Positions 1-43,584 are shown, counted from the stretch's first letter. The stretch: DNA of 64,000 bases from an uncultured virus (IMG/VR IMGVR_UViG_3300031746_000009) (IMGVR_UViG_3300031746_000009), one strand, 5' to 3'. Translations and numbers: made by a program. Notes: generated from the letters alone by a model not told the origin.

Positions 1-126
1 TTGGGGAAACATATTTGCGGAAGCGTAGTCGGGGTCGAAGCAAGTTTTATCATGTGGACTGTTTTGAGGCGATGAGCCTATGAAAGGTCGCAAGTGTAGC
101 ATAATTTCGAAAAGCGAGGGAAAGAA

Positions 127-333
127 ATGAGCGATGAAAACTACGAGGACTATTTTGAACCAGAGGATGAAGAATCACCTTGCGATTACGGTATGGACTC
201 ACCATGTGTGGAGCCAGCATTGCGGAATATGGGCAATTGTTTTGAATGTTGGCTATATCTGGAAATGTGTGAAGAGCAAGAAACAGAACAAAAGAAAAAG
301 GTTGAACCGAAGGGTGAGGCTGAAGCCAAATGA
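127..333 (+). CDS. small acidic Cys-rich hypothetical protein
   Basis: ATGA-coupled member of early array; CxxC motif. Confidence 0.6.
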   Translation: MSDENYEDYFEPEDEESPCDYGMDSPCVEPALRNMGNCFECWLYLEMCEEQETEQKKKVEPKGEAEAK

Positions 334-527
334 AGGACTGTACTAGGGTTAGGCGTCTCACAAAACTGTATGTTGCCATGAACGCTATGGCGATTGACTT
401 GGTTAGTGCCACTGTTGTTCTTGAACGGTTGTTGCCTGACACGAATTTGAAGGACACCTTCTGGGTCAAATTTAATGGCTTGACGGATTTGGGGCGGGAA
501 CGGTTCCTAAAGGAGATTCAACCATGA
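330..527 (+). CDS. hypothetical protein
   Basis: 4-nt overlaps with both neighbours. Confidence 0.6.
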   Translation: MKDCTRVRRLTKLYVAMNAMAIDLVSATVVLERLLPDTNLKDTFWVKFNGLTDLGRERFLKEIQP

Positions 528-829
528 CTCAGCGTCTAGACACATATCACCTTCCCGACAAGATATTCACGCTTAAAGAAAAGGACATGGCTACCACATT
601 CAGAAGCTTATGCAACATCGACGAGCACACCACTTTTTCGAGTGACACTTTCCGCATGTACGGACTAGACAGGTTCATCATGGACAGGGCGCATGGGACT
701 GGAGGGTTTTTTGCGAAGCTTGTTGCTAACGGGCTTGTCGTGCAGGTTGGGTGGGTGCGGAGCTGTTTGCCTAGTAATCATGGGCGTATGATTCGGACGT
801 ATAGGTGGCTTGGAGAAAAGAGAACATGA
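524..829 (+). CDS. hypothetical protein
   Basis: ATGA coupling; GGAG SD upstream. Confidence 0.65.
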   Translation: MTQRLDTYHLPDKIFTLKEKDMATTFRSLCNIDEHTTFSSDTFRMYGLDRFIMDRAHGTGGFFAKLVANGLVVQVGWVRSCLPSNHGRMIRTYRWLGEKRT

Positions 830-1104
830 AGAAAAAATATGAGATAGCCTTTTTCCTATGCTTCGTCTTCGTTGGCGGACTCATGTTGATAGTGGGGCAA
901 GTTCTGATGTGGAGAGGAACCACAGTTGAATGGAAAGACACAAGTTGGTTCTCGGGTCATTGGGTCGCAAGGTACACAACTGAGTTTTATAATGGGCAAT
1001 GGCTGTTCTTTTTCGGCTTAATTATAACGGGGTTTGGTGCCATTGGTGCTTTGGCTATTGGAAGCTCTAGACTAATGGACAAAATTAGGGGGGAAAAGGC
1101 TTGA
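826..1104 (+). CDS. two-TM membrane protein
   Basis: Two hydrophobic segments; ATGA overlap at 826. Confidence 0.65.
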   Translation: MKKKYEIAFFLCFVFVGGLMLIVGQVLMWRGTTVEWKDTSWFSGHWVARYTTEFYNGQWLFFFGLIITGFGAIGALAIGSSRLMDKIRGEKA

Positions 1105-1274
1105 GTGATGTGTGTTTGGAAGGGTTAAGCCACGGCAACATCGAAGTCAGTCAGCTTCGTTTGGGTGGGAAAAAGAGGCGTAAGCCAAATGAGTGCACAG
1201 AGAGCGATGAGGTGGGGAAGGCTTGGACGGTTATCAATCCAACAGTGTTGAAGGAGTGGAGCGGAGAAAAATGA
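1101..1274 (+). CDS. 57-aa protein, allele of 40304..40489
   Basis: Manual translation MSDVCLEGLSH...AWTVINPTVLKEWSGEK shares both termini with 40304..40489. Confidence 0.65.
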   Translation: MSDVCLEGLSHGNIEVSQLRLGGKKRRKPNECTESDEVGKAWTVINPTVLKEWSGEK

Positions 1275-1585
1275 GTGAAGATTTGGTTACCACAAAACAG
1301 CAGTTCATAGACGCGATTTTCAAGCTTGCAACGGAAGAGAATGTTTCGCAACGTTGGAATCTTAGTACTATGCCTTGGAGTTCCGGTTTTGTTTTTGATG
1401 CTCTTGCGAAGGCTGGTTTTGTGGTGTTGAACAAAAAAGCCTTACAGCAACTCGCTAAAAGTATTGACCCAAGAAACTGTAAAGATTGCAAACTAGACCA
1501 GTGCGGTGAATCTGATGATGCATATTGTGGTGGTGGCATGATGCGCTTGTTCATTGAGGCAATTTGTGGGGGCAAACCAGAATGA
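1271..1585 (+). CDS. hypothetical protein, allele of 40581..40835
   Basis: Shared QQFIDAIFKLATEE...VVLNKKAL; different C-terminus. Confidence 0.8.
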   Translation: MSEDLVTTKQQFIDAIFKLATEENVSQRWNLSTMPWSSGFVFDALAKAGFVVLNKKALQQLAKSIDPRNCKDCKLDQCGESDDAYCGGGMMRLFIEAICGGKPE

Positions 1586-1845
1586 GTTTGAAGCAGAAAA
1601 TCGAGCAAAAAGCACTGGACATGCTCAATCGAGTAGACGATGAAAGAGGTCTTACCATAATTGAAAAGGGCAATGTCAAACGGTTTCTTTCATACTATGT
1701 TGATGATGTTGTGGGTTTGCTAGACAAGGCAACCGAGCAGATTCTTTTCAGATTACGAACTTATGTCAAGACGGTTCCTGTTGATATGGCTATTTCCATT
1801 GTAGAACAAGAATTGGGTGTTGAAGGGAGAGAAACCAAGAAATGA
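1582..1845 (+). CDS. hypothetical protein, allele of 40832..41113
   Basis: Shared MSL, GLLDKAxEQI and ETKK. Confidence 0.75.
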   Translation: MSLKQKIEQKALDMLNRVDDERGLTIIEKGNVKRFLSYYVDDVVGLLDKATEQILFRLRTYVKTVPVDMAISIVEQELGVEGRETKK

Positions 1846-2129
1846 GAAAGTGTCCTGAATGTGGCCATGAGGATAATCCTTTGTGGGAGTATAGCCGCTT
1901 CGAGTTCAACGCTGAGTACATGCGTTTTGAAGAGGCCATGCAACAGCCTGAACTTGAAGGGATTTGTTTGGCTCTCGTTGATGCAAAGACCCATGAACCG
2001 CTTGTCATTCCAGAACTGAACCTTGTTTATTATCGTCGTGGAACTGGTGGCCTAGAACTGTATCGGCAATCTATTCCAGATTTTCAGGTGAATCGAGAAC
2101 GAAAAAAGCATAAGAAGGTTGAGGGGTGA
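1842..2129 (+). CDS. CxxC zinc-ribbon protein (paralog of 2435..2776 and 43094..43396)
   Basis: CPECGHED..W..SR motif. Confidence 0.7.
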   Translation: MRKCPECGHEDNPLWEYSRFEFNAEYMRFEEAMQQPELEGICLALVDAKTHEPLVIPELNLVYYRRGTGGLELYRQSIPDFQVNRERKKHKKVEG

Positions 2130-2135
2130 ACTGGT

Positions 2136-2438
2136 TTGGGAGATAAAAGTTCAGGTGTGAAGCCTAGAGAGCGGGATTCACCGTCCATTTCTCTTGTGGG
2201 TTCAGTCGCATCTCCTTTCTCCGTACAAAACCAGCATCCCACCAAGTGGCATTGTGAAGAATGTGGTGTTCCACTGCCTCAATATTCAGGCAAACCTAGT
2301 GCGTGGAAAAAGAAGCAAGATGGAAAACCTATTCTTTGTATTAAATGTGCTAGATCGAAGAATATACAGAGGTATATACAGAAGTGTAGAAAGATGAAGG
2401 CGCATTTCTTGAAGAGGATAGGAGAACAAAAAACATGA
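2136..2438 (+). CDS. zinc-finger protein, allele of 41613..41897
   Basis: CEEC...CIKC; first 35 aa near-identical to partner. Confidence 0.65.
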   Translation: MGDKSSGVKPRERDSPSISLVGSVASPFSVQNQHPTKWHCEECGVPLPQYSGKPSAWKKKQDGKPILCIKCARSKNIQRYIQKCRKMKAHFLKRIGEQKT

Positions 2439-2776
2439 GAGTCTGCCCGAAATGTAGATTTCATGACTTGCCAATTTGGAGAAATAGTAGATGGTATCAC
2501 GATGTGGACGCCGCACGCATTAGTGACATTGAATATTGGGACAAGGTACTTGCAACCAAAATACAATTGAATGGTTTCTGGGAAGACGGAATTTTCTCTT
2601 ATCTCCTTACTACAAACGGAATGGTTTTGAGAAAAGAGACAGAGTTTCTAAATAAAAATACAGATGGAAATACGGCAACGGAAAAGAAAGAAAAGTGGTT
2701 CAAAATTAGCATAGAAAAACATCGGAAGAAACAGGATTTGAAACAGTCTAAGTTGTTGGAGGTTTCGGGGGTTTGA
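2435..2776 (+). CDS. CxxC zinc-ribbon protein
   Basis: CPKC..D...WRNSRW. Confidence 0.7.
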   Translation: MRVCPKCRFHDLPIWRNSRWYHDVDAARISDIEYWDKVLATKIQLNGFWEDGIFSYLLTTNGMVLRKETEFLNKNTDGNTATEKKEKWFKISIEKHRKKQDLKQSKLLEVSGV

Positions 2777-3303
2777 GAAGCCTTCATCTTAGTGAAGAGA
2801 AAAACGCTGAAAGAAAACGGCTATACGATAAAGGCTTAACTGACAAGCAAATGGCTGAGGAACTCGGCATCCACAAAACTACCTTAGTGTCTTGGCGAAA
2901 CAAACACAAGTTGCCATTACACCCTTCGAGAGGTAACATGCTTTCTGATGAAGATGAGGCTTTGAGGCGCAAACTCTATCGCATGGGCTTGAGTGATGGA
3001 GTGATTGCTAGGAAAGTTGGGGTAGCACCTATAACAATTTATGGTTGGAGGCACAGCAGGAAACTAAAACCAAACTTTGAAACGTCCGTTTCCTCAGCAC
3101 AGAGGCGACAGCGTTGCGAGCAAACTAAGCAGATTTTGAGATTATATAAGCGAAAAAAGAGCCTGAACGAGATTGCTGAAACAGTTGGCTTGCCCTATCA
3201 GTCTGTTAGCGTTACGGTTGGACATTATCTTATGCGTTTGTGTCGAACTGAGTCGAGTTGCCCGTTTAAGGCATTGCTTCCAGAAACGGAGTTGAAATCT
3301 TGA
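2773..3303 (+). CDS. tandem helix-turn-helix DNA-binding protein
   Basis: Three HTH-like units (GLTDKQMAEELGIHKTTLVSWR; GLSDGVIARKVGVAPITIYGWR; SLNEIAETVGL). Confidence 0.8.
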   Translation: MRSLHLSEEKNAERKRLYDKGLTDKQMAEELGIHKTTLVSWRNKHKLPLHPSRGNMLSDEDEALRRKLYRMGLSDGVIARKVGVAPITIYGWRHSRKLKPNFETSVSSAQRRQRCEQTKQILRLYKRKKSLNEIAETVGLPYQSVSVTVGHYLMRLCRTESSCPFKALLPETELKS

Positions 3304-3617
3304 GGAGCCTTCTCACATGCCACGGCGACTATCTTTGGGCTGACGCAGACGACTTTTGCCTCACAGAATGCACACAGGTTGAAGAGTGCAAACGGTTTTC
3401 CGAGCTACTTCATGTTCCTAACATAGTATTCTGTAACGTGGAGAAGAGGGCGAGGGCGCAACAGCGTTGTGAGGCTTGGTTGAAACGTACTGAAATCTAC
3501 GTTAAATCTTATGTGGTTGGGTTCAGTCCTAGTATGCGGTTTAAGCGAGCGATTCAGTTTGGCCAGTTGAGGCGTGGCTTGGTACTTCGAAAGAGGATGG
3601 AGGAAAAACGGCGATGA
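3300..3617 (+). CDS. Cys-rich hypothetical protein, near-identical to 42780..43097
   Basis: 105 aa; 2 substitutions versus partner. Confidence 0.8.
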   Translation: MRSLLTCHGDYLWADADDFCLTECTQVEECKRFSELLHVPNIVFCNVEKRARAQQRCEAWLKRTEIYVKSYVVGFSPSMRFKRAIQFGQLRRGLVLRKRMEEKRR

Positions 3618-4276
3618 ACGAAATAGCGATAGACCACATAGATTATTCAAGAACTATGCTCAGAGAAATTGACGGCCAAACAATCGCAGATTTAAAAGAA
3701 AGCATCAAAAAACATGGCGTCCTGCAGCCTATCATCGTTTTCTTGAATGAAAAGCAGAGGTACGAGGTTATTTGTGGGAATCATCGTCTTTGCGCTGCGA
3801 AAGGTGTCGGATTGAAAACGATTCCTTACATAATCAGGCAACTCTCTCACCCTCAAGATGCTCTGATTTTGGCTTTAAACGAGAACATTCAACGTTTGGA
3901 AATGAATCCGTTTAGAGAAGGCGAAATCTATGTTTCTCTGCTTGAGGACTTCACTATTGATGTTCTGTGCGGGAAACTTGGTAAAAGCCGATACTATGTT
4001 GAGGGAAGAGTTAAGCTTTTCAAGAATCTACATGTTGACTTAAAAAACCAAGTTGGAAAAACGTTGACTCTTGGTAATGGTCTTAGTTTAGCTCGATTGC
4101 CTCAGAGTCAACAGCTTGAGGTTTACCAGAAGATAGTAGAAAATCTCAATACAGTTCCTCAAAAAATAAGATACGGAGGAGATGGTGGTTGGAGCAATTC
4201 GCCTTATTGCACTTGCGAGAAATGTGGTGCAAAACATTTGAAAGGAGTCAATGTTATTGATGAGCGAAAAACTTAG
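3614..4276 (+). CDS. ParB/Spo0J-like protein
   Basis: SIKKHGVLQPI, GNHRL, ENIQR and HTH. Confidence 0.9.
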   Translation: MNEIAIDHIDYSRTMLREIDGQTIADLKESIKKHGVLQPIIVFLNEKQRYEVICGNHRLCAAKGVGLKTIPYIIRQLSHPQDALILALNENIQRLEMNPFREGEIYVSLLEDFTIDVLCGKLGKSRYYVEGRVKLFKNLHVDLKNQVGKTLTLGNGLSLARLPQSQQLEVYQKIVENLNTVPQKIRYGGDGGWSNSPYCTCEKCGAKHLKGVNVIDERKT

Positions 4277-4715
4277 TTGTCCTAGATGTCGTAGCGACCA
4301 AATAGTGAAAAGTGGAACACACTATAATTTGAAAGGTGTTGTGCAGCGTTGGCAATGCAAGTTATGTGGCACTTCATTCTGTAATAGCGGATACTTCAGG
4401 GGAAAACATGCTCTTGCGCTCGTGCAATATGCCGTGGTTCTATACAGTCAAGGTTTAAGTTACGAGAAAGTAGCCTCTAAAATAGAGGAGCAGTTCAAAC
4501 AAAAAGTGTCTCGAACCACAATCAAAAATTGGGTAGACATGCTACATGTCCAACCGAGACCTAAAAACTCTGGAAACCAGAAAGACAAGACCGTGCGGGA
4601 ACTCATAGAAATAGGCATGGTTACGACGGTACGTTTTGCTTCTTCAGAAGTGCCTGAAAAATTCTTGATACTTGATAATCAGTCTAGGCTTTTGGTGGGG
4701 GAGGAACAGCGTTGA
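4260..4715 (+). CDS. InsA-like zinc-ribbon plus HTH protein (no transposase catalytic domain)
   Basis: CPRC..IVKSG...QRWQCKLCG then HTH. Confidence 0.7.
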   Translation: MSEKLSCPRCRSDQIVKSGTHYNLKGVVQRWQCKLCGTSFCNSGYFRGKHALALVQYAVVLYSQGLSYEKVASKIEEQFKQKVSRTTIKNWVDMLHVQPRPKNSGNQKDKTVRELIEIGMVTTVRFASSEVPEKFLILDNQSRLLVGEEQR

Positions 4716-4894
4716 ACACTTTGAAACAGCAAGTGTACGAACGATTTTTCTGGTGTACATGGACTTTCTTTACCGCTATCATATGTGGTAACCAGCTTCT
4801 CAGTGCCTTTTTTGCCACGGTTGGGATGGTTTGGCTTATCATGTTTCTTGATGTGTGGCTTGAACCTGAAAAATGGAAGCAAAAACAATGTTAA
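4712..4894 (+). CDS. small membrane protein, allele of 43393..43584
   Basis: MNTLKQQ...FLDVWLEPEKWKQKQ shared. Confidence 0.75.
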   Translation: MNTLKQQVYERFFWCTWTFFTAIICGNQLLSAFFATVGMVWLIMFLDVWLEPEKWKQKQC

Positions 4895-5130
4895 AGTTTA
4901 AGCACAGCGTCATAGATTTATGCGAGTTCGGTTTCTCAGGTGACGGCCTAAACCTGTTTCTGGCAAGCAAAGCGGTTCCTATTGTGGTTTCTGAGTTTCT
5001 GAGCCGTGAACTGTTGGATGCTATGGACGTTTTCAAACATGTTTTCCAGTGGCATTTCTGCGACAGGGCGAATGGGCGAAGCGGAGGCGGGTTCAGTTGT
5101 GACAGCGTGAGGTGTATGGTTTCTGAGTAA
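4888..5130 (+). CDS. hypothetical protein
   Basis: ATG at end of conserved linker. Confidence 0.5.
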   Translation: MLKFKHSVIDLCEFGFSGDGLNLFLASKAVPIVVSEFLSRELLDAMDVFKHVFQWHFCDRANGRSGGGFSCDSVRCMVSE

Positions 5131-5899
5131 ATCTTCTAGCTCTCCCGATTCGACACACATCAGTGAATATGACAGTAAGCAAGGTAACATTCCTAGCATC
5201 AGGTCACAAGTATTCCACGAGTTAGACCAGAATCCATTAAACACGGCTAAGTATCTTGCGAAAATATTGAACCTTCCATACCAAAAATATCGTGGTTACT
5301 TGAACAAGCTACGGTACGAGTGGAAATATGACCACAAAAATGAGCGAGGTTCAAAGCCTTCAAAGTTGCATTGTTTTCGGGCGTGGGTTTTGTTGCGTGG
5401 TTTTGAGTGTCCGAGTAGGGTTGAGGCTTTGAGGGTTGGTTGGGAGCCGACTCGGGCTAAGAACCGTTTTATAGTTTTTAAGGAGTCGTTGGGTCGTGTT
5501 GTGTGGTTTGAGACTGGCCTTGTTCTAGTTAGTGTTAGGGCTCCTGGCAATTTGGGTAGGGCGAAGCAGCTTTTCTGTGATGCTTTCGTGAACACGGGGC
5601 TTATCTGTGATATTAAGGTTATGAATGGGGTTCTTGAACGTGTCAGGAACGATAATGTTCATGCTCCGTATGTGACAGGTCAAAGGCTGCCGAAGTTGGT
5701 GATCACGGATTTCGCTGAGAGCCACGGCATCATCATAAAGGTTGGTGACAGGTCGCATCCTAACGCGGTTGAAGTGATCGCTGGGTTTACTGAGAGCATG
5801 AGGAGTATTGCGAATTTCTTTGACGATTTGAGGATGGGTCTAAACGGCAAAACTGAGAATGGGAATGGGCATGATAATTCTGGGGGAATGGTTGTTTGA
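5123..5899 (+). CDS. putative winged-helix DNA-binding protein (probable CTG start)
   Basis: Frame open upstream of TTG 5267 to CTG 5123 with GAGGTG SD; the extension completes an HTH-like segment. Confidence 0.6.
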   Translation: MSKSSSSPDSTHISEYDSKQGNIPSIRSQVFHELDQNPLNTAKYLAKILNLPYQKYRGYLNKLRYEWKYDHKNERGSKPSKLHCFRAWVLLRGFECPSRVEALRVGWEPTRAKNRFIVFKESLGRVVWFETGLVLVSVRAPGNLGRAKQLFCDAFVNTGLICDIKVMNGVLERVRNDNVHAPYVTGQRLPKLVITDFAESHGIIIKVGDRSHPNAVEVIAGFTESMRSIANFFDDLRMGLNGKTENGNGHDNSGGMVV

Positions 5900-6174
5900 A
5901 GGAGGGTGAGAAAGTCTATCGTTTGGTTGCTTATTCTGATGTTCAATGTGAGGAAAGCGGTAGAACCATTCCTGCAGGTCAGACGTTTTTATTAGACGTT
6001 ATACCATATCCAGATGGAAGCAAACATAATCACAAAATTGGTGAGGAGTGTTGGCATGGTCCTAAAGACGTTATTATCGATCTGACGAAGAAACCTTGGA
6101 GAAAAGGCTTCAGAGAAGATGGCTATCGTCAAATGATGCGTCGTGCTAGAAGGCAACCTTGGAGAAATTATTGA
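5896..6174 (+). CDS. hypothetical protein
   Basis: TTGA overlap; Cys/His residues suggest metal binding. Confidence 0.6.
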   Translation: MKEGEKVYRLVAYSDVQCEESGRTIPAGQTFLLDVIPYPDGSKHNHKIGEECWHGPKDVIIDLTKKPWRKGFREDGYRQMMRRARRQPWRNY

Positions 6175-6347
6175 AGGTTTTGGGGTTGATGAAATGAAAA
6201 AAGAAACTTTAGCTTGGGACTATCAAACCTTCAAGACGATTAGTGAAGCTTCAAAAGTTAACAGGGTTAGTTTGCGTCGGGATGTGATGCGGCTGGCTGA
6301 ACTGTTGGGTGTAGAGTTTGAAGGATTCAGGAGGGAGCTGAAGAAAC

Positions 6348-7220
6348 GTGGTTAAGCTTGATGTTGTGATGTGGACTAAGAATGGCTCTAACACGTTGCC
6401 CTCTGTCTTGAAGCGGATAAACGAAGTTGTGCCAGGCGAGTTTGTTGGCCAAAAACTCATTGTTGACGATAAGAGTGTTGACAACACCCGAGAGGTTGCG
6501 AAGGTTTTTGGATGGACTGTTGTTTTCAATGAGGGAACAGGAATAAGTGATGGTGCAAACACAGCCCTCAAACATGTCAAGGCTGAGCGCTTCATAAGTT
6601 TTGAACAGGATTTGCTTTTGTCGCGGGATTGGTGGAGCAAGATACCCTGTTACCTTGAGAATCCCCAAGTGGCTGCTGCGTCTGGAATGCGGTTTGCTGA
6701 CATGCCCGGGGGCGTTAGAAAACTGCAACAGTATGTGGCGAAAAAGTATCGTGGTGAAGCGAGTTTGGCTTCTTGGTTGAGGACTAGGCAGATGGCCGCG
6801 TTTACACTTGGGAAAACTTTGGACAACACGATTTACAAAACAAAAATAATTAAAGCACTTGGAGGGTTTCCAAAGATGCGTGTGAATGCTGGTGTAGATA
6901 CTATTCTTGCTTACAAGGTTGAGCAAGCTGGTTATCATTGGGTTGTTGATTATAATGTGCAATCTATCCATATTCGAAAGGGGTTAAAGCAAGAACTGAA
7001 TCATCAATACTGGTACGGAACGCAACTGAACGAGATATGGCGAAGAATAGAAACTGAAACAAACAAAAGCCCACCAGTGACAAGATTCGGCATAATATAC
7101 CGTTTCTTTACATCTCCTTTCACAGGACTGTTTGTGGCGTTCAAGACAAATGAGCCGTCGATAACGTACATTCACCCGTTGATACGTTTCTATTACATGA
7201 AGGGTTTGTTGAGGAGTTGA
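6348..7220 (+). CDS. glycosyltransferase family 2
   Basis: IVDDKSVDNT; GT-A N-terminal pattern. Confidence 0.85.
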   Translation: MVKLDVVMWTKNGSNTLPSVLKRINEVVPGEFVGQKLIVDDKSVDNTREVAKVFGWTVVFNEGTGISDGANTALKHVKAERFISFEQDLLLSRDWWSKIPCYLENPQVAAASGMRFADMPGGVRKLQQYVAKKYRGEASLASWLRTRQMAAFTLGKTLDNTIYKTKIIKALGGFPKMRVNAGVDTILAYKVEQAGYHWVVDYNVQSIHIRKGLKQELNHQYWYGTQLNEIWRRIETETNKSPPVTRFGIIYRFFTSPFTGLFVAFKTNEPSITYIHPLIRFYYMKGLLRS

Positions 7221-7224
7221 TTAA

Positions 7225-7341
7225 ATGATGAGTAATAAGGAAGAGGTTTATGACCCATGCTGTGACTGTGTGATTGAAGTAGCTAAACAACAAGGAAAAT
7301 ACTTCTGTCAGCTCTGTCGAAAAGTGAAGGGAAAAGTTTGA
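7225..7341 (+). CDS. 38-aa Cys-rich peptide
   Basis: Manual translation MMSNKEEVYDPCCDCVIEVAKQQGKYFCQLCRKVKGKV; GAGGAG upstream. Confidence 0.5.
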   Translation: MMSNKEEVYDPCCDCVIEVAKQQGKYFCQLCRKVKGKV

Positions 7342-7372
7342 TTACTAACTTGCTTCATGGAGGTTTTGAATT

Positions 7373-35792: not shown

Positions 35793-36029
35793 TTGTCTTC
35801 TGCTGAGTTGAAAAAGGTTCTCCACGATCTTTGTCGTGCTGTTGAGCCTTACTACATTGCTTACCAGTTGGCTCAGGCTCGGCGTGGTCGAGACTCGACC
35901 AGTGCTGGCGAAAACTCGCAACTAGCGTCTAAGAATCACCCAGATTCACCATCGTCGGTGGTTTCTTTTTCGTCGTGTGGTGCGGGTTCGCTAGAAGCAC
36001 CAGAAACAAAGGAGCAAACCAAAAAATGA
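35793..36029 (+). CDS. hypothetical protein
   Basis: Fills operon; ATGA overlap with next gene. Confidence 0.5.
   Translation: MSSAELKKVLHDLCRAVEPYYIAYQLAQARRGRDSTSAGENSQLASKNHPDSPSSVVSFSSCGAGSLEAPETKEQTKK
35885..35901. repeat. perfectly palindromic variant of the 17-bp motif
   Basis: TGGTCGAGACTCGACCA, 15/17 to the other copies. Confidence 0.7.
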
Positions 36030-37003
36030 GTGATGAATACGATTTAGCTAAATCTTCAAAGAAGCTAGGTCCGCTTGTCCCGATTCTGAAGGACAAAAAC
36101 GGCAATATCATAGACGGGTTTCATAGGCAGAATGCTAACCCTGATTGGCCTACGATCACGGTTGATTCGGTTGATTCTGACGCAAAGCTCGAGCTGGCGC
36201 GTCTAGCAACGAACTTTTGTCGCAGACGACTTGAACCCAGCGAGATCCAGAACCGACTAAGCTTTCTTGTTGGAAAATGCGGAATGAAGCCCGAGGAGAT
36301 CGCTGAACAAACCGGAATCAGTTTGACTACGATTTACAAGTATCTTCCTCAAGAACTTAAAGACGAAAAGAAGGTTGAAGCGGGCAAGGCTTCGGGTGAG
36401 GCTCGTTCTGTTCCGTCTGCGGAACACACTGTTAAGACTCACGATATGGTTATCTGTGAATTCTGTCACATAGCTTCAAGCGACATTCAAACCGAAGTCG
36501 TCAACAGTAAACCCCGCAAACTCTGCGTCCGTTGCCAAGGAAACTTTGTTTTAGCGCCTGAACGGTTCACCGCGTTTTTCCGCAACGTGAACGGCGAAGT
36601 TAAGACGTTGGAAGAACGGCTTGCAGAGAAGCCTGGGCCAGCTTTCAAGGAAAAGTGGGAACAAACGCTAGGCACTATGCAAACAGATGATCCGAAGGTT
36701 GAAAGGATTTTCAGTGAAGAAGCTCAGGCTCTTGGACTTCATGGGTTCCGTGTTAAGCCAGAGATTCCGGTGATAAGTGTTTGGCCTGACAATTTTCATG
36801 TGGAAACTAACACGTTGTTCTGGATGGATAATGAGGAGCTTCACAAGGGCAAACGAAGCGACAAGGACGATCAGTATCGGGCAATCTTGGAGGGACGTGG
36901 TTTCAAGAATGAGGTTTTCCGTTACAAGGGTGAGCCGTCTCGGGCAAAGGTTCGTGAGTTTCTTGTGGCGTGGCAGAAAAAGGTGGAGGCTAAAACGCAA
37001 TGA
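36026..37003 (+). CDS. ParB-like / HTH / zinc finger / Vsr-DUF559-like fusion
   Basis: IIDGFHR, EEIAEQTGIS, CEFC..CVRC, PDNF...H...D...GF. Confidence 0.75.
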   Translation: MSDEYDLAKSSKKLGPLVPILKDKNGNIIDGFHRQNANPDWPTITVDSVDSDAKLELARLATNFCRRRLEPSEIQNRLSFLVGKCGMKPEEIAEQTGISLTTIYKYLPQELKDEKKVEAGKASGEARSVPSAEHTVKTHDMVICEFCHIASSDIQTEVVNSKPRKLCVRCQGNFVLAPERFTAFFRNVNGEVKTLEERLAEKPGPAFKEKWEQTLGTMQTDDPKVERIFSEEAQALGLHGFRVKPEIPVISVWPDNFHVETNTLFWMDNEELHKGKRSDKDDQYRAILEGRGFKNEVFRYKGEPSRAKVREFLVAWQKKVEAKTQ

Positions 37004-37374
37004 GCATAAACATAGAGGACGCGCAAACTATTGTTGATTGCATAGCGGAAATCATTGATCCAACACACAAGTACACGATCAAGAAATTCAAGAGAACATG
37101 CGCTTTCACATGGGAAACATTTGCCAGAGGAAAACGTCGAGTCATAGGGGTAACTCATGCTACACTAACTAACCATTCCATAAACCGCTTCATCAGAGTA
37201 ATGCTTCACGAAATCGCCCATTTCATCCATGACAAACGGTACAGGAAAAGGCTTTATCTTCTCCGTAAACGTAGAGCGCATAGAAAAACTTTCCACAAAT
37301 TAGAATCAACATTAAAGGCGAAATTTGAGAGTGCTTACGGCGAAATGCTGCCTGAACACTGTTGGGAGGTTTAA
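37000..37374 (+). CDS. HExxH zinc metalloprotease-like protein (SprT-like)
   Basis: VMLHEIAH ... AHRKTF. Confidence 0.7.
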   Translation: MSINIEDAQTIVDCIAEIIDPTHKYTIKKFKRTCAFTWETFARGKRRVIGVTHATLTNHSINRFIRVMLHEIAHFIHDKRYRKRLYLLRKRRAHRKTFHKLESTLKAKFESAYGEMLPEHCWEV

Positions 37375-37377
37375 AGG

Positions 37378-37605
37378 ATGGAGTCTGTTTCTCACGTCAA
37401 TCATAAGGGTGATGTTCTTGCTGTGATGCGTTTCAAGCTTGAGCTAGGCATCTTCCGTTACTTCGACGATTACCTCACAGATTTGAGGAGGAAGGTTCGG
37501 GATGCGGAAATAGTGCCTTCGGAGGCCACATGGTTGTGGGAGAAAGTCAAGTACCCATGCTACTTGTGCAGTAGGCGGAATGTTGGGAAACTGTTGGAGG
37601 TTTAG
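37378..37605 (+). CDS. hypothetical protein
   Basis: GGAGG SD; in operon. Confidence 0.55.
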   Translation: MESVSHVNHKGDVLAVMRFKLELGIFRYFDDYLTDLRRKVRDAEIVPSEATWLWEKVKYPCYLCSRRNVGKLLEV

Positions 37606-38007
37606 ATGATGAAGATAAGGAAGAACGTTAAAGCCCTTAGCCCCGTCGTCGCATCAATCATACTCATCGCTGTTACAGTCGCAGTAAGCATTGCCGTAGC
37701 AGCATGGATGGGAGCACTGACCTTCACATTCATGCGACCGCAGGAATTAGTCTTCACATACAAAGTTGAAATCCCTAATTTCCAGAATGCGACGCACTGC
37801 ACTTTTAGCATGTGGGAGTCATGGAAGATTTATAATGAAAGCAAAACGCTTGTTCCATTGCCCTACACGTTTGAAGCTTCCACAAGATATGATGTTCAAT
37901 GTCCCCTTTACGTAAACTATTACGAGTGTTTGGGTGAGGGCGTTTTCCGTGAGTTGGGTTCGCAGAAGTTTATGGTTCTGTTGCAGAAAGAGGTTGATGT
38001 GCCGTGA
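37606..38007 (+). CDS. archaeal type IV pilin-like protein
   Basis: KNVKA|LSPVVASIILIAVTVAVSIAVAAWM class III signal and pilin helix. Confidence 0.85.
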   Translation: MMKIRKNVKALSPVVASIILIAVTVAVSIAVAAWMGALTFTFMRPQELVFTYKVEIPNFQNATHCTFSMWESWKIYNESKTLVPLPYTFEASTRYDVQCPLYVNYYECLGEGVFRELGSQKFMVLLQKEVDVP

Positions 38008-38131
38008 GGTCGAAAGAGGAAATCTTAGAGAATTTTCGAATAACTAACGATGATTACTGGTTCAAGCGTTTGTTGCTTGAGGTGCTGTGCGACATTCGCG
38101 ACGAGCTAGCCAAAAAGGAGGAAACCAAAAA

Positions 38132-38437
38132 ATGAATAAATACAAATCCAAACTTGCAGAATATGGAAAATCAATTAACGTGAAAACAGGGCATCGTCCA
38201 AGCACAGAATTTCTTAATGCTAAACTTCAAAATAGGCTTGAGGCAATCAATAAACACTACGCGGAAATTTTGAGGGAGTACGCTAAACTCGATGAAAAAA
38301 TAGCGAAACTTGACGAGGAAACTTTCGACCATTTGGGACCTGAAAGTGTCAATCTTGGCGTGGCATTAGACTGGCTTGGGGTTTTGCTTTCACCGAAAGA
38401 GCTTGACCAGAAAACGAGGGAAGGCGACATAAAATGA
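38132..38437 (+). CDS. coiled-coil hypothetical protein
   Basis: GGAGG SD upstream of ATG 38132. Confidence 0.65.
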   Translation: MNKYKSKLAEYGKSINVKTGHRPSTEFLNAKLQNRLEAINKHYAEILREYAKLDEKIAKLDEETFDHLGPESVNLGVALDWLGVLLSPKELDQKTREGDIK

Positions 38438-38637
38438 CGAAGAATGAGGAAACATTCACCGCAAACCGCAACCACATGCGCCTAATGCGTCGGCTAGGCT
38501 GTGAACTGGAATGTATGAAACAAATTTGTTTGCATGGTTCGAGGGCGATTGTGGTTGGGGAAACATATTTGCGGAAGCGTAGTCGGGGTCGAAGCAAGTT
38601 TTATCATGTGGACTGTTTTGAGGCGATGAGCCTATGA
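38434..38637 (+). CDS. small Cys/His protein; 3' part duplicated at 1..83
   Basis: C..C..C...HVDC. Confidence 0.7.
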   Translation: MTKNEETFTANRNHMRLMRRLGCELECMKQICLHGSRAIVVGETYLRKRSRGRSKFYHVDCFEAMSL

Positions 38638-39632
38638 AAGGTCGCAAGTGTAGCATAATTTTCATGCGAAAGGTAGCTAATCGGCTTGAGGTTCTGGAAG
38701 AACGATACAAAGATTTATCACCTAAACTACGTGCTGGCAAAATCAATGAACAGTTACTTTCTGAGTTTTGCGTTGGTAGAAGCGAGATGTTCAAATGGAA
38801 ACAAGCCGTAAAAATTATGGAAAAGAGTAAGAACGTTAGTCTCATTAATGAGACTGAAGACGTTATACAGCCAACTCACGCTATGGAAATCGCAAGACTT
38901 CCAGAAGAAAAACAGGAAGAAGCAATACAAAAAGTCCAAAAGGAAAATCTAACAGTCAAACAAACAGAATTATTAGTGAAAGAGGTTCTTGGCGAATTAA
39001 AGAAGCCAGAGCCAATCCCAGAAAATGAATATGACGACGTTACCCTTTTACATGGAGACTTCCGAGAGGTTGGCAAACAGATACCTGATAATTCCGTTCA
39101 CTGTATAATCGTTGACCCACCCTATGGAAAACCATATTTGGAACTGTGGAGTGCTTTAGGAGAACTTGCAAAAAGAGTCTTAGTTCCTAGCGGTTTTCTG
39201 ATAAGTTACAGTGGACAATTATATCTTCCAGAAGTATTTTCAAGCCTAAGCAAGTTCCTAGAATATTATTGGACAGCTTGTTTAACTCTACAACATCGAA
39301 ACCTTGTTGATGTACGGAATGTTTACAATCTATGGAAACCGTTACTTATTTGGAATAAACCGCCACGAATGGCGCCAAGCAAGTATTTCACCGACCTAAT
39401 CAATGGTGCCGGAAAAGAAAAGGATTTTCACGATTGGCAACAAGGACTAGCAGAACTTGAAACTTTAATCGCAACCTTCTGTCCTGAGAATGGAGTAATT
39501 CTTGATCCTATGGCTGGAAGTGGAACAACTCTTGTCGCCGCAAGAAAGGCCAAACGAAAAGTTATCGGTATAGAACTTTCGGAAGAAACTTTTTCCATAA
39601 TGAAAAGGAGACTTGGCTATGACAATCAGTGA
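38634..39632 (+). CDS. DNA amino-methyltransferase with ParB-C-like helical N-terminus
   Basis: HAMEIARLP, VDPPY, LDPMAGSGTT. Confidence 0.9.
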   Translation: MKGRKCSIIFMRKVANRLEVLEERYKDLSPKLRAGKINEQLLSEFCVGRSEMFKWKQAVKIMEKSKNVSLINETEDVIQPTHAMEIARLPEEKQEEAIQKVQKENLTVKQTELLVKEVLGELKKPEPIPENEYDDVTLLHGDFREVGKQIPDNSVHCIIVDPPYGKPYLELWSALGELAKRVLVPSGFLISYSGQLYLPEVFSSLSKFLEYYWTACLTLQHRNLVDVRNVYNLWKPLLIWNKPPRMAPSKYFTDLINGAGKEKDFHDWQQGLAELETLIATFCPENGVILDPMAGSGTTLVAARKAKRKVIGIELSEETFSIMKRRLGYDNQ

Positions 39633-40002
39633 ACTTGTCAGAAAAGCCAAGAATGAACATTACTACGGTTCTCCATTAAACCGTTTCATAGACGAAAAAT
39701 GTAGCCATGAAATGACCTGTATAAACATTGACTGTCTCTTAGTCAAAATTAGCAAACGGAAAGTTCGAATCATAGAATCCAAACATCTGAATGAAATGTT
39801 ACCTAGATCACAAAGAACTGCATTAACAATTTTGAAACAAATTGTTGACAGTTCGCCACAAACAGATTGGAGTATAGAGTTTTATGAAGTTCGTGGAGAT
39901 TACCCATACCACAAAGCAGAAATCACTAGATTAAATCATCCAGAAACTAGAATGATACTTTCCCAGAAAGCTCTCATAAATTGGTTAAATTTTGGAGACT
40001 GA
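39613..40002 (+). CDS. putative PD-(D/E)xK nuclease-like protein
   Basis: IDCLL...IIESKH; coupled to MTase. Confidence 0.55.
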   Translation: MAMTISELVRKAKNEHYYGSPLNRFIDEKCSHEMTCINIDCLLVKISKRKVRIIESKHLNEMLPRSQRTALTILKQIVDSSPQTDWSIEFYEVRGDYPYHKAEITRLNHPETRMILSQKALINWLNFGD

Positions 40003-40303
40003 AACATGAATTTGGTTTATCATGGACGCGGAAACCCGAAGCAATGCTACCATGAACCAAACTGTCTCAAGTGCTATCTACACTTGCTTGTGTTTCTTGT
40101 GACGTTGAAGGTGAAAAACAGATGAGATGCCGAAATTGTTACATGTGGTCTTACGGTGAAGGAAGATGCCAGTCTTGCGTGAAATGTGTCAATCAAAACC
40201 AGTATGTTTCAAGAAGGACGATGGATTTTCGCTATTGCAAAACTTGCGATGATTTTGTCATTTTGAATAAAGGTGAGAAGCATCGGCATGAGACGGTGAG
40301 AGC

Positions 40304-40489
40304 ATGAGGGATGTGTGTTTGGAAGGGTTAAGCCACGCCTTCTGCGCGTTCAAAGGATGCGGAAAACGTCTTTCACGTGGAAGCAAAACGGGGTTTTGTC
40401 GTCAACATAGTGGGGGAAAAGGGGTTTATGAGAATACGGCTTGGACGGTTGTTCGTCCTGACTTGTTGAAGGAGTGGGTTGGAAAATGA
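40304..40489 (+). CDS. small zinc-finger-like protein, allele of 1101..1274
   Basis: Shared termini; C..C..C..H middle. Confidence 0.65.
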   Translation: MRDVCLEGLSHAFCAFKGCGKRLSRGSKTGFCRQHSGGKGVYENTAWTVVRPDLLKEWVGK

Positions 40490-40580
40490 AGCCTCTCAAG
40501 TTTAAGGGTGTGAACTGGAACTTTTGCGTTACATGTTCCTACTATCACAAGTGTGAGCAAAGGAAACAGAGGTATGGAAA

Positions 40581-40835
40581 ATGAGTGAGTTGGTTGTCAC
40601 AAGACAGCAGTTCATAGATGCGATTTTCAAGCTTGCAACGGAAGAGGATGTGTCGCAACGTTGGAATCTTAGTACTATGCCTTGGAGTTCAGGTTTTGTT
40701 TTTGATGCTCTTGTGAAGGCTGGTTTTGTGGTGTTGAACAAAAAAGCCCTATTTGGTCGTTTGACTAGTGGAAACGCGAAAGCCGAGATTGCGAACAAGT
40801 TAATCAAGGAAATCTTGGGGGACAAACCAGAATGA
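40581..40835 (+). CDS. hypothetical protein, allele of 1271..1585
   Basis: Direct similarity. Confidence 0.8.
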   Translation: MSELVVTRQQFIDAIFKLATEEDVSQRWNLSTMPWSSGFVFDALVKAGFVVLNKKALFGRLTSGNAKAEIANKLIKEILGDKPE

Positions 40836-41113
40836 GTTTGAGGGTGAAGATTCGGGAACAAGCAAAAACCTATGAGGACTACGCAAAAGAGTTCATTGAA
40901 TTGTGTCACTCAAAAGCCGGATGGGATGTTCGTGCAAACTATAAACAGCAAAAGCTGGTTTCGGTTGATGTGGTTTCTGGCTTGCTAGACAAGGCAATCG
41001 AGCAAATTGAAGCGAAAGCGTTTCGTCATGGCGTGAACTATTGGGAAAGGCCTGTCATGCTGGATGATGTTAGAAAGGTTCTTTTGGGTGCTGAAGGGGA
41101 AACCAAGAAATGA
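40832..41113 (+). CDS. hypothetical protein, allele of 1582..1845
   Basis: Direct similarity. Confidence 0.75.
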   Translation: MSLRVKIREQAKTYEDYAKEFIELCHSKAGWDVRANYKQQKLVSVDVVSGLLDKAIEQIEAKAFRHGVNYWERPVMLDDVRKVLLGAEGETKK

Positions 41114-41607
41114 GTAAGCCAGACAAATTCATTTTGGATGCTACGGCGGGGTTCCGCATGATGTGGTTCAACAAGCATGAGCCTCATACGATTTATCTTG
41201 ACCAGCGACCAGAATGCGAGCCCGACATTGTGGGTGATTTTCGGGATTTGAAACAGTTTCCAGACAAAACATTCAGACTAATAGTATTCGACCCACCACA
41301 CATGATAGGTAAATGGCATACTATGGATACGCCTATTATGCGAAATTTTGGTGGTCTAGTTGCTGAAACTTGGCAATCTGACATTAGGAAAGGCTTTTCA
41401 GAGTTATGGAGAGTTCTAAAACCTTTCGGGGTTTTATTATTTAAATGGAACAATCACGATATACCGACAGAAAAAATCGTTCAACTTTTTCCTATTACAC
41501 CCTTGTTTGGTCAGCAAGTGATGCAACGGATTAACAAACATGGAGATAATCGAACTTTGTGGTTTTGTTTCATGAAAATTGAAAACGAAAAGAAAGAGGG
41601 GGTGTAG
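41110..41607 (+). CDS. small SAM-dependent (probable DNA adenine) methyltransferase
   Basis: ILDATAG...FDPPH. Confidence 0.85.
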   Translation: MSKPDKFILDATAGFRMMWFNKHEPHTIYLDQRPECEPDIVGDFRDLKQFPDKTFRLIVFDPPHMIGKWHTMDTPIMRNFGGLVAETWQSDIRKGFSELWRVLKPFGVLLFKWNNHDIPTEKIVQLFPITPLFGQQVMQRINKHGDNRTLWFCFMKIENEKKEGV

Positions 41608-41612
41608 CTGGT

Positions 41613-41897
41613 TTGGGAGTTAAAAGTTCAGGTGTGAAGCCTAGAGAGCGGGATTCACCGTCCATTTCTCTTGTGGGTTCAGTCGCATCTCCTTTCTCCT
41701 TACAAAACCAACACCCCAAATCTGACCGAGTAAAATATCACTGTGAAAAATGTGGTATTCCTTTGCATCACAGGGAAAGTAAGCCTAGTCGCTATGAGAT
41801 GAGGCAACAGGGAAAACCGATTCTTTGTCATAAATGTTCTGCGAGAGAAAATGGGAAGAAGCGAAACCAACATCCCACATTGGAGATGAAAACATGA
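41613..41897 (+). CDS. zinc-finger protein, allele of 2136..2438
   Basis: CEKC..CHKC. Confidence 0.65.
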   Translation: MGVKSSGVKPRERDSPSISLVGSVASPFSLQNQHPKSDRVKYHCEKCGIPLHHRESKPSRYEMRQQGKPILCHKCSARENGKKRNQHPTLEMKT

Positions 41898-42036
41898 AGC
41901 ATCAGACTAAGTATTGTTGTGTGGTTTGTGGTAAGCCTTTGCCGTATGTTGCTGGCAAGTGGAGGATTATGCTGTTGCGGTGGGGTTTTGTGGCTTGTAA
42001 GACGCATTTCTTGAAGAGGATAGGAGAACACAAAAC

Positions 42037-42783
42037 ATGAGCCAAAAAGAGAAACTCTTTCACTTAATCAAATTTGGTGAAGCATTAGAGGAGTGCAGAA
42101 AACTAGATGATAAAAGCGTGGATTTGGTTTTGACAGATCCACCATTCAACCATGAAACAGAACACTATGATACTAGGCAAGAAAAATTCTTGAAGGTTTC
42201 CAAATCATTTGCCGATTTTGCGATAATGCGAAGTTTCTTCGGAGATTTAGCTTCAGAATTCCAACGTATTTTAAAACCAAAAGGCAGAGTATTACTTTTT
42301 TGCGACTGTTATAGTTACCCTATTTTTTGGAGTGGCTTCTATAATCTATTTGACCATGTTAGAGCCTTGATTTGGTATAAAGGAAGAGGCTATTATTCGT
42401 TAGGTTGTAATCAAGCCTTCCGTTATTCTTATGAAATGATTCTTCATGCTTTCAATACTGATAGTTGGTTTGATATGAGTCAACGTCAAGACGTATTAGA
42501 ATGTAAAAACGTGCCTTCTACCGAAAGAGAACATCCAGCGCAAAAACCTATTGAACTACTGATGAAGTTAATTTTCGCAACATGCCCCAGATATGGAGTT
42601 GTTCTTGACCCGTTTGTTGGAAGTGGTTCAATAATTCTAGCGGCAAAATATTCCGAGCGTTCTGGTTTAGGCTTTGAAGCAAATCCCACATTTGTGGAAC
42701 TCGCACAAAAAAATCTTGGACAACCAAACTTGTTTACGATTGAACCAGAAAAGAAAGAAATGCGGGAGGTTTCGGGGGTTTGA
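42037..42783 (+). CDS. N4/N6 DNA methyltransferase
   Basis: TDPPF, HPAQKP, LDPFVGSG. Confidence 0.92.
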   Translation: MSQKEKLFHLIKFGEALEECRKLDDKSVDLVLTDPPFNHETEHYDTRQEKFLKVSKSFADFAIMRSFFGDLASEFQRILKPKGRVLLFCDCYSYPIFWSGFYNLFDHVRALIWYKGRGYYSLGCNQAFRYSYEMILHAFNTDSWFDMSQRQDVLECKNVPSTEREHPAQKPIELLMKLIFATCPRYGVVLDPFVGSGSIILAAKYSERSGLGFEANPTFVELAQKNLGQPNLFTIEPEKKEMREVSGV

Positions 42784-43097
42784 GAAGCCTTCTCACATGC
42801 CACGGCGACTATCTTTGGGCAGACGCAGACGACTTCTGCCTCACAGAATGCACACAGGTTGAAGAGTGCAAACGGTTTTCCGAGTTGCTTCATGTTCCTA
42901 ACATAGTATTCTGTTATGTGGAGAGGAGGGCGAGAGCGCAACAGCGTTGTGAGGCTTGGTTGAAACGTACTGAAATCTACGTTAAATCTTATGTGGTTGG
43001 GTTCAGTCCTAGTATGCGGTTTAAGCGGGCGATTCAGTTTGGCCAGTTGAGGCGTGGCTTGGTACTTCGAAAGAGGATGGAGGAAAAACGGCGATGA
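42780..43097 (+). CDS. Cys-rich hypothetical protein, near-identical to 3300..3617
   Basis: Direct similarity. Confidence 0.8.
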   Translation: MRSLLTCHGDYLWADADDFCLTECTQVEECKRFSELLHVPNIVFCYVERRARAQQRCEAWLKRTEIYVKSYVVGFSPSMRFKRAIQFGQLRRGLVLRKRMEEKRR

Positions 43098-43396
43098 GTT
43101 TCATTTGCTCTAATTGTGGAACAAGAGATAATGCGTGCTGGAGAAATAGTCATTGGTTTCTGCATATCCAGACATGTAAAATTGATGATTTAGACATTTG
43201 GGAACCTGAAATTGCTAAACGTTTGCGAGAAGAAAAAGAGTTTGAAGATAAAGGTTACTATTACAAGATTAGCAAGTTTGGCAGAGTCTACCGTGTCCCG
43301 GCGGATTTGAAAGACGAATACAAACGTGGTCACATTCAAGAGCATCCGAAAGATGGAAAACAAAAACGGCTTTTGGTGGGGGAGGAACGGCGTTGA
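43094..43396 (+). CDS. CxxC zinc-ribbon protein
   Basis: CSNCG..D...WRNSHW. Confidence 0.7.
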   Translation: MSFICSNCGTRDNACWRNSHWFLHIQTCKIDDLDIWEPEIAKRLREEKEFEDKGYYYKISKFGRVYRVPADLKDEYKRGHIQEHPKDGKQKRLLVGEERR

Positions 43397-43584
43397 ACAC
43401 TTTGAAACAGCAAGAATATCTTCTATTTTCAGTTTGCCTTGTCTGCTTCGCTTTGGCAATAGTTGGTGCAACTCTTGTTAAAGACGGTTTTACCGGTGCC
43501 TTATTCACTATTTTGGGGATGCTGGGTCTTGTCGCTTTTCTTGATGTGTGGCTTGAACCTGAAAAATGGAAGCAAAAACAATGA
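43393..43584 (+). CDS. small membrane protein, allele of 4712..4894
   Basis: Shared termini. Confidence 0.75.
   Translation: MNTLKQQEYLLFSVCLVCFALAIVGATLVKDGFTGALFTILGMLGLVAFLDVWLEPEKWKQKQ

Follow-up and report, generated by a model that had tools for sequence, protein, structure and literature searches.

Two virus genomes lie end to end in the window

The window analyzed here, a 64,000-nucleotide (nt) stretch of DNA assigned to an uncultured virus (IMGVR_UViG_3300031746_000009), carries two versions of an early array of small genes, a chain made up of conserved backbone genes with fixed slots of changing cargo between them. An earlier note on this DNA had treated the two versions as one array. 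Each belongs instead to a virus genome of its own, the one genome following on the other, and they are not a duplication within a single genome. Genome A occupies 1-38554 (38,554 bp) and is opened within its long early operon. From 38662 on the window is that of another virus, B, different from A and partially contained (38555-64000), with its early array on the plus strand (38434-45906) and tailed-virus structural genes on the minus strand (46097-64000). A and B are related sediment viruses with the same chain of small early genes.

The extent of A was established from related metagenome contigs. In one of 38,237 bp (L002), the equivalents of window 35474-37612, 38004-38101, 38220-38389 and 38416-38554 lead directly into that of 1-517, and its positions 10001-20315 match window 3300-13614 at 99.8% identity. 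A second contig of 38,500 bp (L005) has the same order as L002. In contigs from four runs (X1-X4; these data are contigs, not reads), 38661 is followed by the sequence of window 108 onward. Because the order in L002 and L005 and the contigs of the four runs close A, window 1-38554 is one full lap of a genome of about 38.5 kb. The early operon of A runs from about 35975, through a segment shared with B, to 11283.

The shared segment occurs twice, both times on the plus strand. The copy at 38393-38661 comprises the 3' part of a 67-amino-acid (aa) gene (38434-38637) and the first nine codons of the next gene; the copy at 1-107, identical to 38555-38661, is cut by the window edge. This 107-nt repeat is therefore a clipped one: in the related contigs and runs, the equivalents of 38393-38554 stand immediately before the equivalent of window position 1. 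In B, the gene that follows (38634-39632, plus strand) is cargo found in B only, encoding a 332-aa protein with a ParB-type helix-turn-helix (HTH) and an N6_N4 DNA methyltransferase (MTase) domain. A keeps its first nine codons alone (80-130), where they are joined to seven other codons and a stop as a 16-codon remnant open reading frame (ORF). At 45220-45897, where B has two ORFs, the contigs of X2, X3 and X4 hold 18 other letters instead, a presence/absence polymorphism at gene boundaries.

In run X1, A-type pieces have depths of 20-28 and B-type pieces of 31-37, while the shared 38393-38661 reaches 60.8, roughly their sum, and an alternative upstream sequence attaches at 38374. A single contig piece covers 38393-38661 in X2 and X4. 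The closure of A is present in X2-X4, where B-specific bins have depths of 0-4 (we do not read the uncovered parts of B as absence). In the window, the passage from A to B may reflect an assembly path that leads through the shared segment, or A and B may form a physical concatemer. Tandem integration at the shared segment was judged unlikely, as the segment sits inside a coding operon that is uninterrupted in L002.

The early arrays of A and B share conserved genes and short junction islands

The nine pairs of blocks that the earlier note had reported between the two arrays are all present, with 0, 0, 0, 0, 1, 1, 0, 1 and 0 mismatches over 107, 28, 19, 16, 92, 39, 28, 47 and 47 nt, respectively. 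Their common order also holds: an independent BLASTN of 1-38554 against 38555-64000 gave 11 collinear plus-strand matches linking 1-4890 with 38555-43583 (E 1e-4 to 1e-151), and a repeat search of the window found the same families. For the 19-mer at 2758/42765, 0.00 matches are expected (none in 100 shuffles). The largest shared blocks had been missing from that list, namely 1268-1444 with 40578-40751 (93%), 2123-2351 with 41599-41840 (79%), and the whole gene at 3300-3617 with 42780-43097 (97% at the nt level). In total, 1291 of 4900 nt fall within matches between A and B.

From its left end, the array of A (plus strand throughout) begins its series of junction islands with K1 (1099-1134, partner 40302-40337), 36 nt at 94% identity between upstream genes that are unrelated and downstream genes that are 39% identical. 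Island K5 (1813-1850, partner 41084-41118) forms the left edge of what we call slot W and is found in five sequences with one upstream and four downstream gene families. The K5-type motif GAAACCAARAAATGA occurs four times in the window against 0.05 expected, at four junctions of which two are non-orthologous. Slot W holds a 95-aa Zn-ribbon protein in A (1842-2129) and a DNA MTase in B (41110-41607; phrog_954, E 3.9e-45). The conserved segment 2123-2439 follows, with the Zn-ribbon backbone gene fam4 (2136-2438), and ends in island K7 (2397-2439, partner 41999-42041), which is found in six sequences with two upstream and five downstream families. Slot X (2435-3303) contains in A a 113-aa Zn-ribbon gene (2435-2776) and a 176-aa HTH gene (2773-3303), the latter flanked by a 13-nt repeat, TTGAG[AG]AGCCTTC; B has an N6_N4 MTase instead (42037-42783). 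Island K8 (2758-2785, partner 42765-42792) carries a Shine-Dalgarno (SD) sequence, codons for an EV[SL]GV tail and a TTGA stop/start overlap. Next comes the 105-aa backbone gene fam0 (3300-3617), the gene that is 97% identical to its partner in B and which matches no family. Slot Y (3614-4715) encodes a ParB-like protein of 220 aa and an InsA-like Zn-ribbon protein of 154 aa in A, and a Zn-ribbon protein in B (43094-43396). It is closed by island K10 (4687-4733, partner 43368-43414), with a RLLVGEE[QR]R tail, an SD sequence and TTGA, which leads into fam3, a 60-aa membrane-like protein (4712-4894, partner 43393-43584, 52% aa identity) with a further island at its 3' end (4844-4890).

The earlier note had described the content between the junction blocks as unrelated. 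This stands for the three swaps it quoted, with their common tails: the Zn-ribbon gene at 1842 against 41110, the Zn-ribbon gene at 2435 against the N6_N4 MTase at 42037 (both ending EVSGV), and the ParB-like plus InsA-like pair against 43094 (both ending RLLVGEE[QR]R). It does not stand for several other genes between the blocks, which are diverged homologs (39% aa identity for 1101 and 40304, 35% for 1564 and 40832, 52% for 4712 and 43393, and 68% for 2136 and 41613), and whole or partial genes are shared as well. Because these large gene-level blocks and diverged homologs are present, sharing is not confined to junctions. The relationship between A and B is a mosaic: some genes are conserved, some have diverged but retain conserved ends, and others have been replaced. 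The SD-like runs and short start/stop overlaps proposed for the junctions are real, the overlap being exactly 4 nt at 56 of 106 junctions in 11 related sequences, and the weak start codon TTG is frequent among the backbone genes.

Three fixed slots hold different cargo in related viruses

The protein encoded by fam0 has just five relatives among 5.8 billion proteins, and a 44-nt exact pattern from the shared segment had no match in viral_contigs. Nine metagenome loci were found via fam0 and, together with A and B, make up the 11 sequences compared here. Two weak fam0 matches were not used, one in viral_contigs (L001, 37% over 40 residues) and one in a bacterial metagenome-assembled genome in genome_contigs (L011, 44% over 37 residues).

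In these sequences the genes follow the order fam2, slot W, fam4, slot X, fam0, slot Y, fam3, and each slot shows many alternative contents. Slot W has five states in seven sequences: the Zn-ribbon gene of A, a 165-aa DNA MTase (B and L008), a DUF4326 protein (L005 and L006), a 79-aa ORF (L007) and a spacer of 123 nt (L002). Six cargo families occupy slot X in eight complete sequences, with another, partial, upstream ORF in L004. Among them are N6_N4 MTases of 248 aa (B) and 426 aa (L006), a C5 MTase of 427 aa (L002; PF00145, E 1.5e-84) and a short C5-MTase-like protein (L003 and L005); the other fillings are the Zn-ribbon family fam13 (A and L008, with the HTH gene added in A) and a winged HTH protein (L007). 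Slot Y has seven states in eight sequences. In addition to the ParB-like and InsA-like pair (A and L002) and the Zn-ribbon gene of B, we found a 466-aa N6_N4 MTase (L003), a Cys-rich ORF of 114 aa (L004), an HNH endonuclease (L009), a PAPS reductase (L010) and one empty slot, in which fam0 and fam3 are fused stop to start (L005). DNA MTases account for about a third of all slot fillings, which also include HNH, ParB-like and PAPS-reductase proteins. Fixed slots with unrelated cargo swapped between conserved junctions, as proposed from A and B, are thus borne out by nine further contigs, in three slots with five to seven states each.

Cargo can differ between viruses that are nearly the same over long stretches. 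Across 10.3 kb, A and L002 have 99.8% identity, but slots W and X and the order of the upstream genes differ between them, and in between their similarity alternates between patches of 99, 92 and 67% identity. Such a patchwork is what frequent recombination with a diverse pool leaves behind. The adjacencies of cargo, linker and backbone gene were seen in separate contigs of five data-set prefixes and in independently built contigs of the four runs. In L002, a small cassette (fam8) is present twice, at 5866-6057 and 6573-6779, each time with the same upstream and downstream junction pieces and with two other genes between the copies.

Unrelated cargo genes share slot-specific, in-frame tails

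The joints have a common anatomy. On the left, the edge of the cargo is the start codon overlapping the prior stop codon (ATGA or GTGA), and similarity is lost 1-2 nt beyond it. On the right, the edge lies 20-35 nt ahead of the cargo stop codon, so that the last codons of unrelated cargo genes come from a conserved piece specific to each slot, which also contains an SD-like run and the overlap (TTGA or ATGA) into the following gene. The encoded tails, each followed directly by the stop codon, are KVEG for slot W (A, L005, L006 and L007), EV[SL]GV for slot X and RLLVGEE[QR]R for slot Y. All nine readable ORFs upstream in slot X end at a TGA overlapping the TTG start of the next gene, which is fam0 or, in A and L004, the inserted HTH gene. 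In slot Y, six of seven cargos are in frame up to the TTGA of fam3, the exception being L010, and four unrelated cargos have about 30 nt in common before fam3. The 19-mer of island K8 is exact in all ten sequences that cover the joint, with six upstream and two downstream families as neighbors. Island K7 is also found behind a different upstream gene in L006, and the 3' end of fam0 is followed by six downstream families.

These joints coincide with the places where similarity begins and ends. Counting homology ends between all sequence pairs, we found that 156 of 219 unique positions where similarity begins fall within -60 to +5 nt of a stop codon (19% under the null), and that 137 of 197 unique positions where it ceases fall within -15 to +45 nt (null 16%). 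Among junction 28-mers there are 88 similar pairs where 0.3 are expected. Gene ends are more conserved than interiors in four of six families (fam2, fam3, fam4 and fam6, not fam7; in fam0 at the 5' end only), and across eight sequences the ends of fam3 have identities of 0.77 and 0.88 against 0.60 for its interior. Evenly spread conservation, which the earlier note had named as grounds for refuting its interpretation, is thus not what these families show. The linkers of different slots are unrelated to one another except for the SD sequence, and none of nine junction windows folds better than its shuffles (z -0.73 to +1.25).

Recombination signals extend through a backbone gene

To the left of slot Y, the conserved piece is the 3' end of fam0, and it resembles the piece on the right. 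L005, with its empty slot, holds a single hybrid of the two, and in L010 a copy of the fam0 3' end lies behind the cargo, matching that of L002 at 22 of 22 nt. Judged from sequence comparison, this likeness, the hybrid and the copy appear to show the filling or emptying of a slot. Two related MTases occupy different slots, one slot X (L006) and one slot Y (L003); they are 90% identical over the 5' 100 nt and 84% over the 3' 99 nt, with differing middles; each has the tail of its own slot, and the switch falls at a GGGGGA(GG) run.

Signals of recombination are no less present away from the linkers, inside a backbone gene. In a four-gamete test of nine fam0 sequences (L010 was excluded as too divergent), 94 of 253 informative site pairs fail, which requires at least nine events in 318 nt. 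A pair of sites that straddle the start of fam0, separated by 15 nt, occurs in all four combinations, with comparable signals inside fam0, both in contig data. Because four-gamete failures lie inside fam0, crossovers are not confined to linkers. For slots X and Y, refilling by short-homology recombination, which the earlier note had put forward, is not a requirement, since the flanking backbone genes offer 200-320 nt at 79-98% identity. The recombination signals run through fam0, and the linkers are unstructured.

Taken together, we consider that ordinary homologous recombination in a diverse virus pool, combined with selection that favors translational coupling and anti-restriction cargo, is the probable source of the mosaic. 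The early operons of A and B have one design, a chain of very small genes with NTGA overlaps and an SD-like run before each, in which conserved backbone genes of unassigned function alternate with fixed slots. In this model, the slot contents would be exchanged among co-circulating relatives. Exchange would occur wherever sequence is shared, in the backbone genes and in the 20-45-nt pieces beside the junctions, and new cargo would enter via rare homology-poor joints. The junction pieces would persist since they carry the SD sequence and the stop/start overlap needed by the next gene. Within such an overlap, backbone genes with TTG starts probably depend on translation of the preceding gene, which would place the junction pieces under selection. 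Only recombinants whose incoming ORF stays in frame up to the overlap would keep the downstream operon expressed, and this would explain why unrelated cargos have common slot-specific tails. As the cargo consists mainly of DNA MTases and other DNA-modifying or DNA-binding proteins, escape from host restriction is the likely driver of cargo exchange, judging by these families.

Several observations weigh against this explanation. No crossover at a linker was seen directly in the run contigs, and neither the breakpoint ends nor the four-gamete counts represent independent events. Contigs from metagenomes may be chimeras of strains, which would inflate apparent recombination, and no recombinase gene was recognized in the family scans. 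Some joints depart from the common anatomy: the cargo of L010 stops 22 nt short of fam3, the HTH gene is bounded by its 13-nt repeat alone, and the cargo of L007 replaces K7 entirely. Between A and B, islands K1, K5 and K7 lie between flanks with little or no detectable similarity, so that homology there is truly short, at 36-43 nt. Finally, the archaeal host discussed below hangs on one domain match, in a gene that is itself a cassette.

Three other explanations were weighed against ordinary homologous recombination. If co-occurring strains had been stitched together at shared k-mers, the cargo combinations as well as the A-B join would be chimeric, and the features of the shared segment described above (a depth in X1 that is about the sum of the A and B types, the alternative upstream sequence joined at 38374, and the closure of A in X2-X4 where B-specific bins are nearly empty) speak for such stitching. 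The local adjacencies, however, recur across five data-set prefixes and four independently assembled runs, and linkers of 28-47 nt are short compared with what we take to be usual final k-mer sizes. Mis-assembly could pair distant slots wrongly but cannot produce the junction pattern, and we regard it as a very improbable cause. A second alternative is illegitimate recombination followed by selection, in which joints arise anywhere, those at gene boundaries survive, and the conserved pieces are mere ends of neighboring genes with no role in exchange. This is the generally favored view for phage mosaics, in which boundary sequences are absent at most joints (PMC3029335, in its treatment of mosaic joints). 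Most junction clusters here are indeed bound to one backbone gene on one side, and L010, the HTH insertion with its 13-nt repeat and L007 resemble one-off joints. Random joints do not readily account for six unrelated upstream genes that break before K8 at the same place within a few nt, all in frame, nor for the stretch of about 30 nt common to four unrelated slot-Y cargos, for islands of 36-43 nt at 94-95% identity whose flanks have no detectable similarity, or for at least nine events within fam0. As an account of the whole array we find illegitimate recombination doubtful; the first capture of each new cargo must have been of this type.

The remaining alternative is a dedicated cassette system, with linkers serving as recognition or crossover sites for a virus or host recombination activity that captures promoterless ORFs in frame, as an integron does. 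It would explain why single islands have different genes on both sides (six upstream and two downstream families at K8, two and five at K7), why the K5-type motif recurs at non-orthologous junctions, why the related MTases of slots X and Y switch at a GGGGGA(GG) run, why a second copy of a cassette in L002 includes both linkers, and why the left edge of every cargo is exactly at a start codon. Such a system would not be expected to have linkers that differ between slots in all but the SD sequence and that lack a hairpin in all nine junction windows, and its boundary rule is broken by L010, L007 and the HTH gene. No recombinase adjoins the array: no recombinase family was found in or beside 1-5130 or 38434-45906, and the only tyrosine-recombinase match, at 32058-33164, is weak (phrog_216, E 3e-5; XerA, 19 bits against a cut-off of 220). 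The interior of a backbone gene shows recombination signals equal to those at the linkers. Because of this recombination inside a backbone gene and the hairpin-free linkers, a dedicated cassette machine is unlikely. We likewise give little credence to the junction pieces being portable SD and start/stop adaptors, some of them reused at non-orthologous junctions, that move promoterless ORFs between slots and viruses. If they were, they would constitute integron-like gene capture without attC or integrase in archaeal viruses, supplying new anti-restriction genes.

A and B are probably tailed viruses of archaea

The structural genes of B include an HK97-type capsid protein (59580-60494; Linocin_M18, E 6.8e-19; phrog_264), a maturation protease (61750-62856; phrog_530) and a tape-measure-like ORF of 951 aa (50890-53745) on the minus strand with other tail genes. 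No capsid family was matched in A, and its sole tie to tailed viruses is two tail proteins in common with B. These two adjacent proteins are also the only similarity between A and B outside the early array. Neither a terminase large subunit nor a portal was recognized in the window, past which B extends. The shared tail module lies at 21626-24694 on the plus strand in A and at 50890-54527 on the minus strand in B; measured against the early array, the module points in opposite directions in A and B. One of its genes has 59% aa identity, while the tape-measure-like gene is similar only at both ends (79% over the N-terminal 38 aa and 97% over the 3' 39 nt).

With regard to the host, a 133-aa protein of A (37606-38007, plus strand) has an archaeal type IV pilin/archaellin signal peptide (TIGR02537, E 4.1e-6, 26.2 bits against a cut-off of 20). 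Its gene is a cassette, missing at exact gene boundaries from L002 and from the contigs of X3 and X4. The cargo also includes HTH_45 and DUF2116 domains, which we take to be mainly archaeal. From these gene families, A and B are probably tailed viruses with an archaeal host. Searches for other host clues gave no spacer match, no tRNA gene and no host flank for the window, and with no tRNA gene found in the scan, no tRNA-type attachment site is evident. Nor did a close known virus emerge: in tblastn against phage records, the capsid protein had three weak matches (29% over 27% of its length) and a 697-aa protein of A had none; a PDB sequence search with the 697-aa protein and a 580-aa protein of A returned nothing below E 0.07. 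Structure-atlas matches of fam0 and the 697-aa protein (scores 0.78-0.83, TM at most 0.26) did not rise above noise and were disregarded for both function and taxonomy.

Other features of genome A

A 19-nt motif occurs five times in A with up to three mismatches (0.01 expected), at 11397-11415, 21550-21568 (minus strand), 26065-26083, 30781-30799 and 35885-35903. It is found in genome A only and is always intergenic. A short distance before the long early operon begins, the copy at 35885 forms a perfect palindrome. The motif is probably the operator of a dimeric regulator. At the end of the early operon, 6348-11283 encodes GT2 and GT4 glycosyltransferases, a radical SAM/SPASM protein, a methyltransferase and a B12-binding radical SAM enzyme, a cluster that may specify a virus-encoded glycan or modification pathway; L005 has a GT2 gene 81% similar to that of A. 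On the minus strand at 11771-13110, a 268-aa ORF without a family match lies beside a homing-endonuclease-like ORF (12559-13110; phrog_5046 'HNH endonuclease', E 2e-15, with a weak LAGLIDADG_1 match), after which comes a DnaA/AAA-like ORF (13243-14205). Within a 699-aa ORF (28678-30777), an 88-nt direct repeat (29770-29857 and 29959-30046, 73% identity, 189 nt spacing) suggests repeated domains in a probable tail or fiber protein.

Significance and comparison with known systems

The role of linkers in phage mosaicism is an old unsettled question, and linkers are missing at most joints of known phages. In this virus group, nearly all joints of a compact array have them, each slot has many natural alleles in one habitat, and backbones up to 99.8% identical carry different cargo. 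Because the linkers are dense, the alleles many and the backbones nearly identical, crossover positions, minimal homology and the role of coupling could be directly measurable. The data also suggest a hot spot at which DNA MTases and other likely anti-restriction genes accumulate in uncultivated archaeal viruses. A literature search of limited extent found no account of such arrays of junction linkers in archaeal viruses, and the excerpt of PMC10848311 on viruses of Bathyarchaeia that we considered mentions neither these contigs nor a mosaic array.

Integrons capture promoterless ORFs by means of attC sites and an integrase, in an ordered array that is expressed from upstream. The early array resembles them in its promoterless ORFs and in its fixed insertion points with very diverse cargo. 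It differs in having no attC hairpins and no adjacent integrase, and each of its boundaries falls either at a start codon or within the 3' end of an ORF. The cargo genes are also unlike morons, which bring their own promoter and terminator between genes: their starts overlap the prior stop and their ends overlap the next start. The PeSL cassettes in hyperplastic regions of T4-type phages have intergenic promoter and stem-loop motifs (PMC2839356 and PMC4122927), and PeSL-like motifs are reported in the haloarchaeal virus HGTV-1 (PMC3950731). As far as these accounts go, PeSL regions are similar in placing hypervariable small accessory genes between conserved blocks with repeated short flanking motifs. 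The genes of the early array, by contrast, are chained by overlapping codons, with neither intergenic DNA nor a predicted stem-loop.

The closest likeness is to the mosaicism of bacterial viruses. Relaxed homologous recombination by phage recombinases is the subject of PMC2327257 and PMC3945230. For lambdoid phages, PMC3029335, in the same treatment of mosaic joints, cites the model of short conserved boundary sequences and states that such sequences are not findable at most mosaic joints. Like the lambdoid linkers, the islands described here are short, lie at gene boundaries amid unrelated segments with varying neighbors, and invite a proposal of homologous recombination; the features of boundary mosaicism seen here are islands of 28-47 nt with 0-1 mismatch between unrelated genes, joints at gene boundaries and changing neighbors. 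Unlike them, these islands occur at most joints of a 5-kb array, coincide with an SD sequence and overlapping start and stop codons, and give unrelated proteins a common in-frame C-terminal tail, in viruses whose host is probably archaeal. A further parallel is mycobacteriophage Island3, where the last 18 codons (about 50 bp) of an inserted gene at gp67/gp68 are the same as those of the upstream gene; the insertion or deletion was put down to recombination between these repeats as short boundary sequences (PMC3029335, as summarized there). L010 and the empty and filled forms of slot Y follow the same pattern, with the difference that Island3, as presented in that source, is a single event in one phage pair, whereas here three slots have five to seven states each. 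The array is an unusually clean and dense form of the gene shuffling known from bacterial viruses, notable for its density, its in-frame shared tails and its probable archaeal host.

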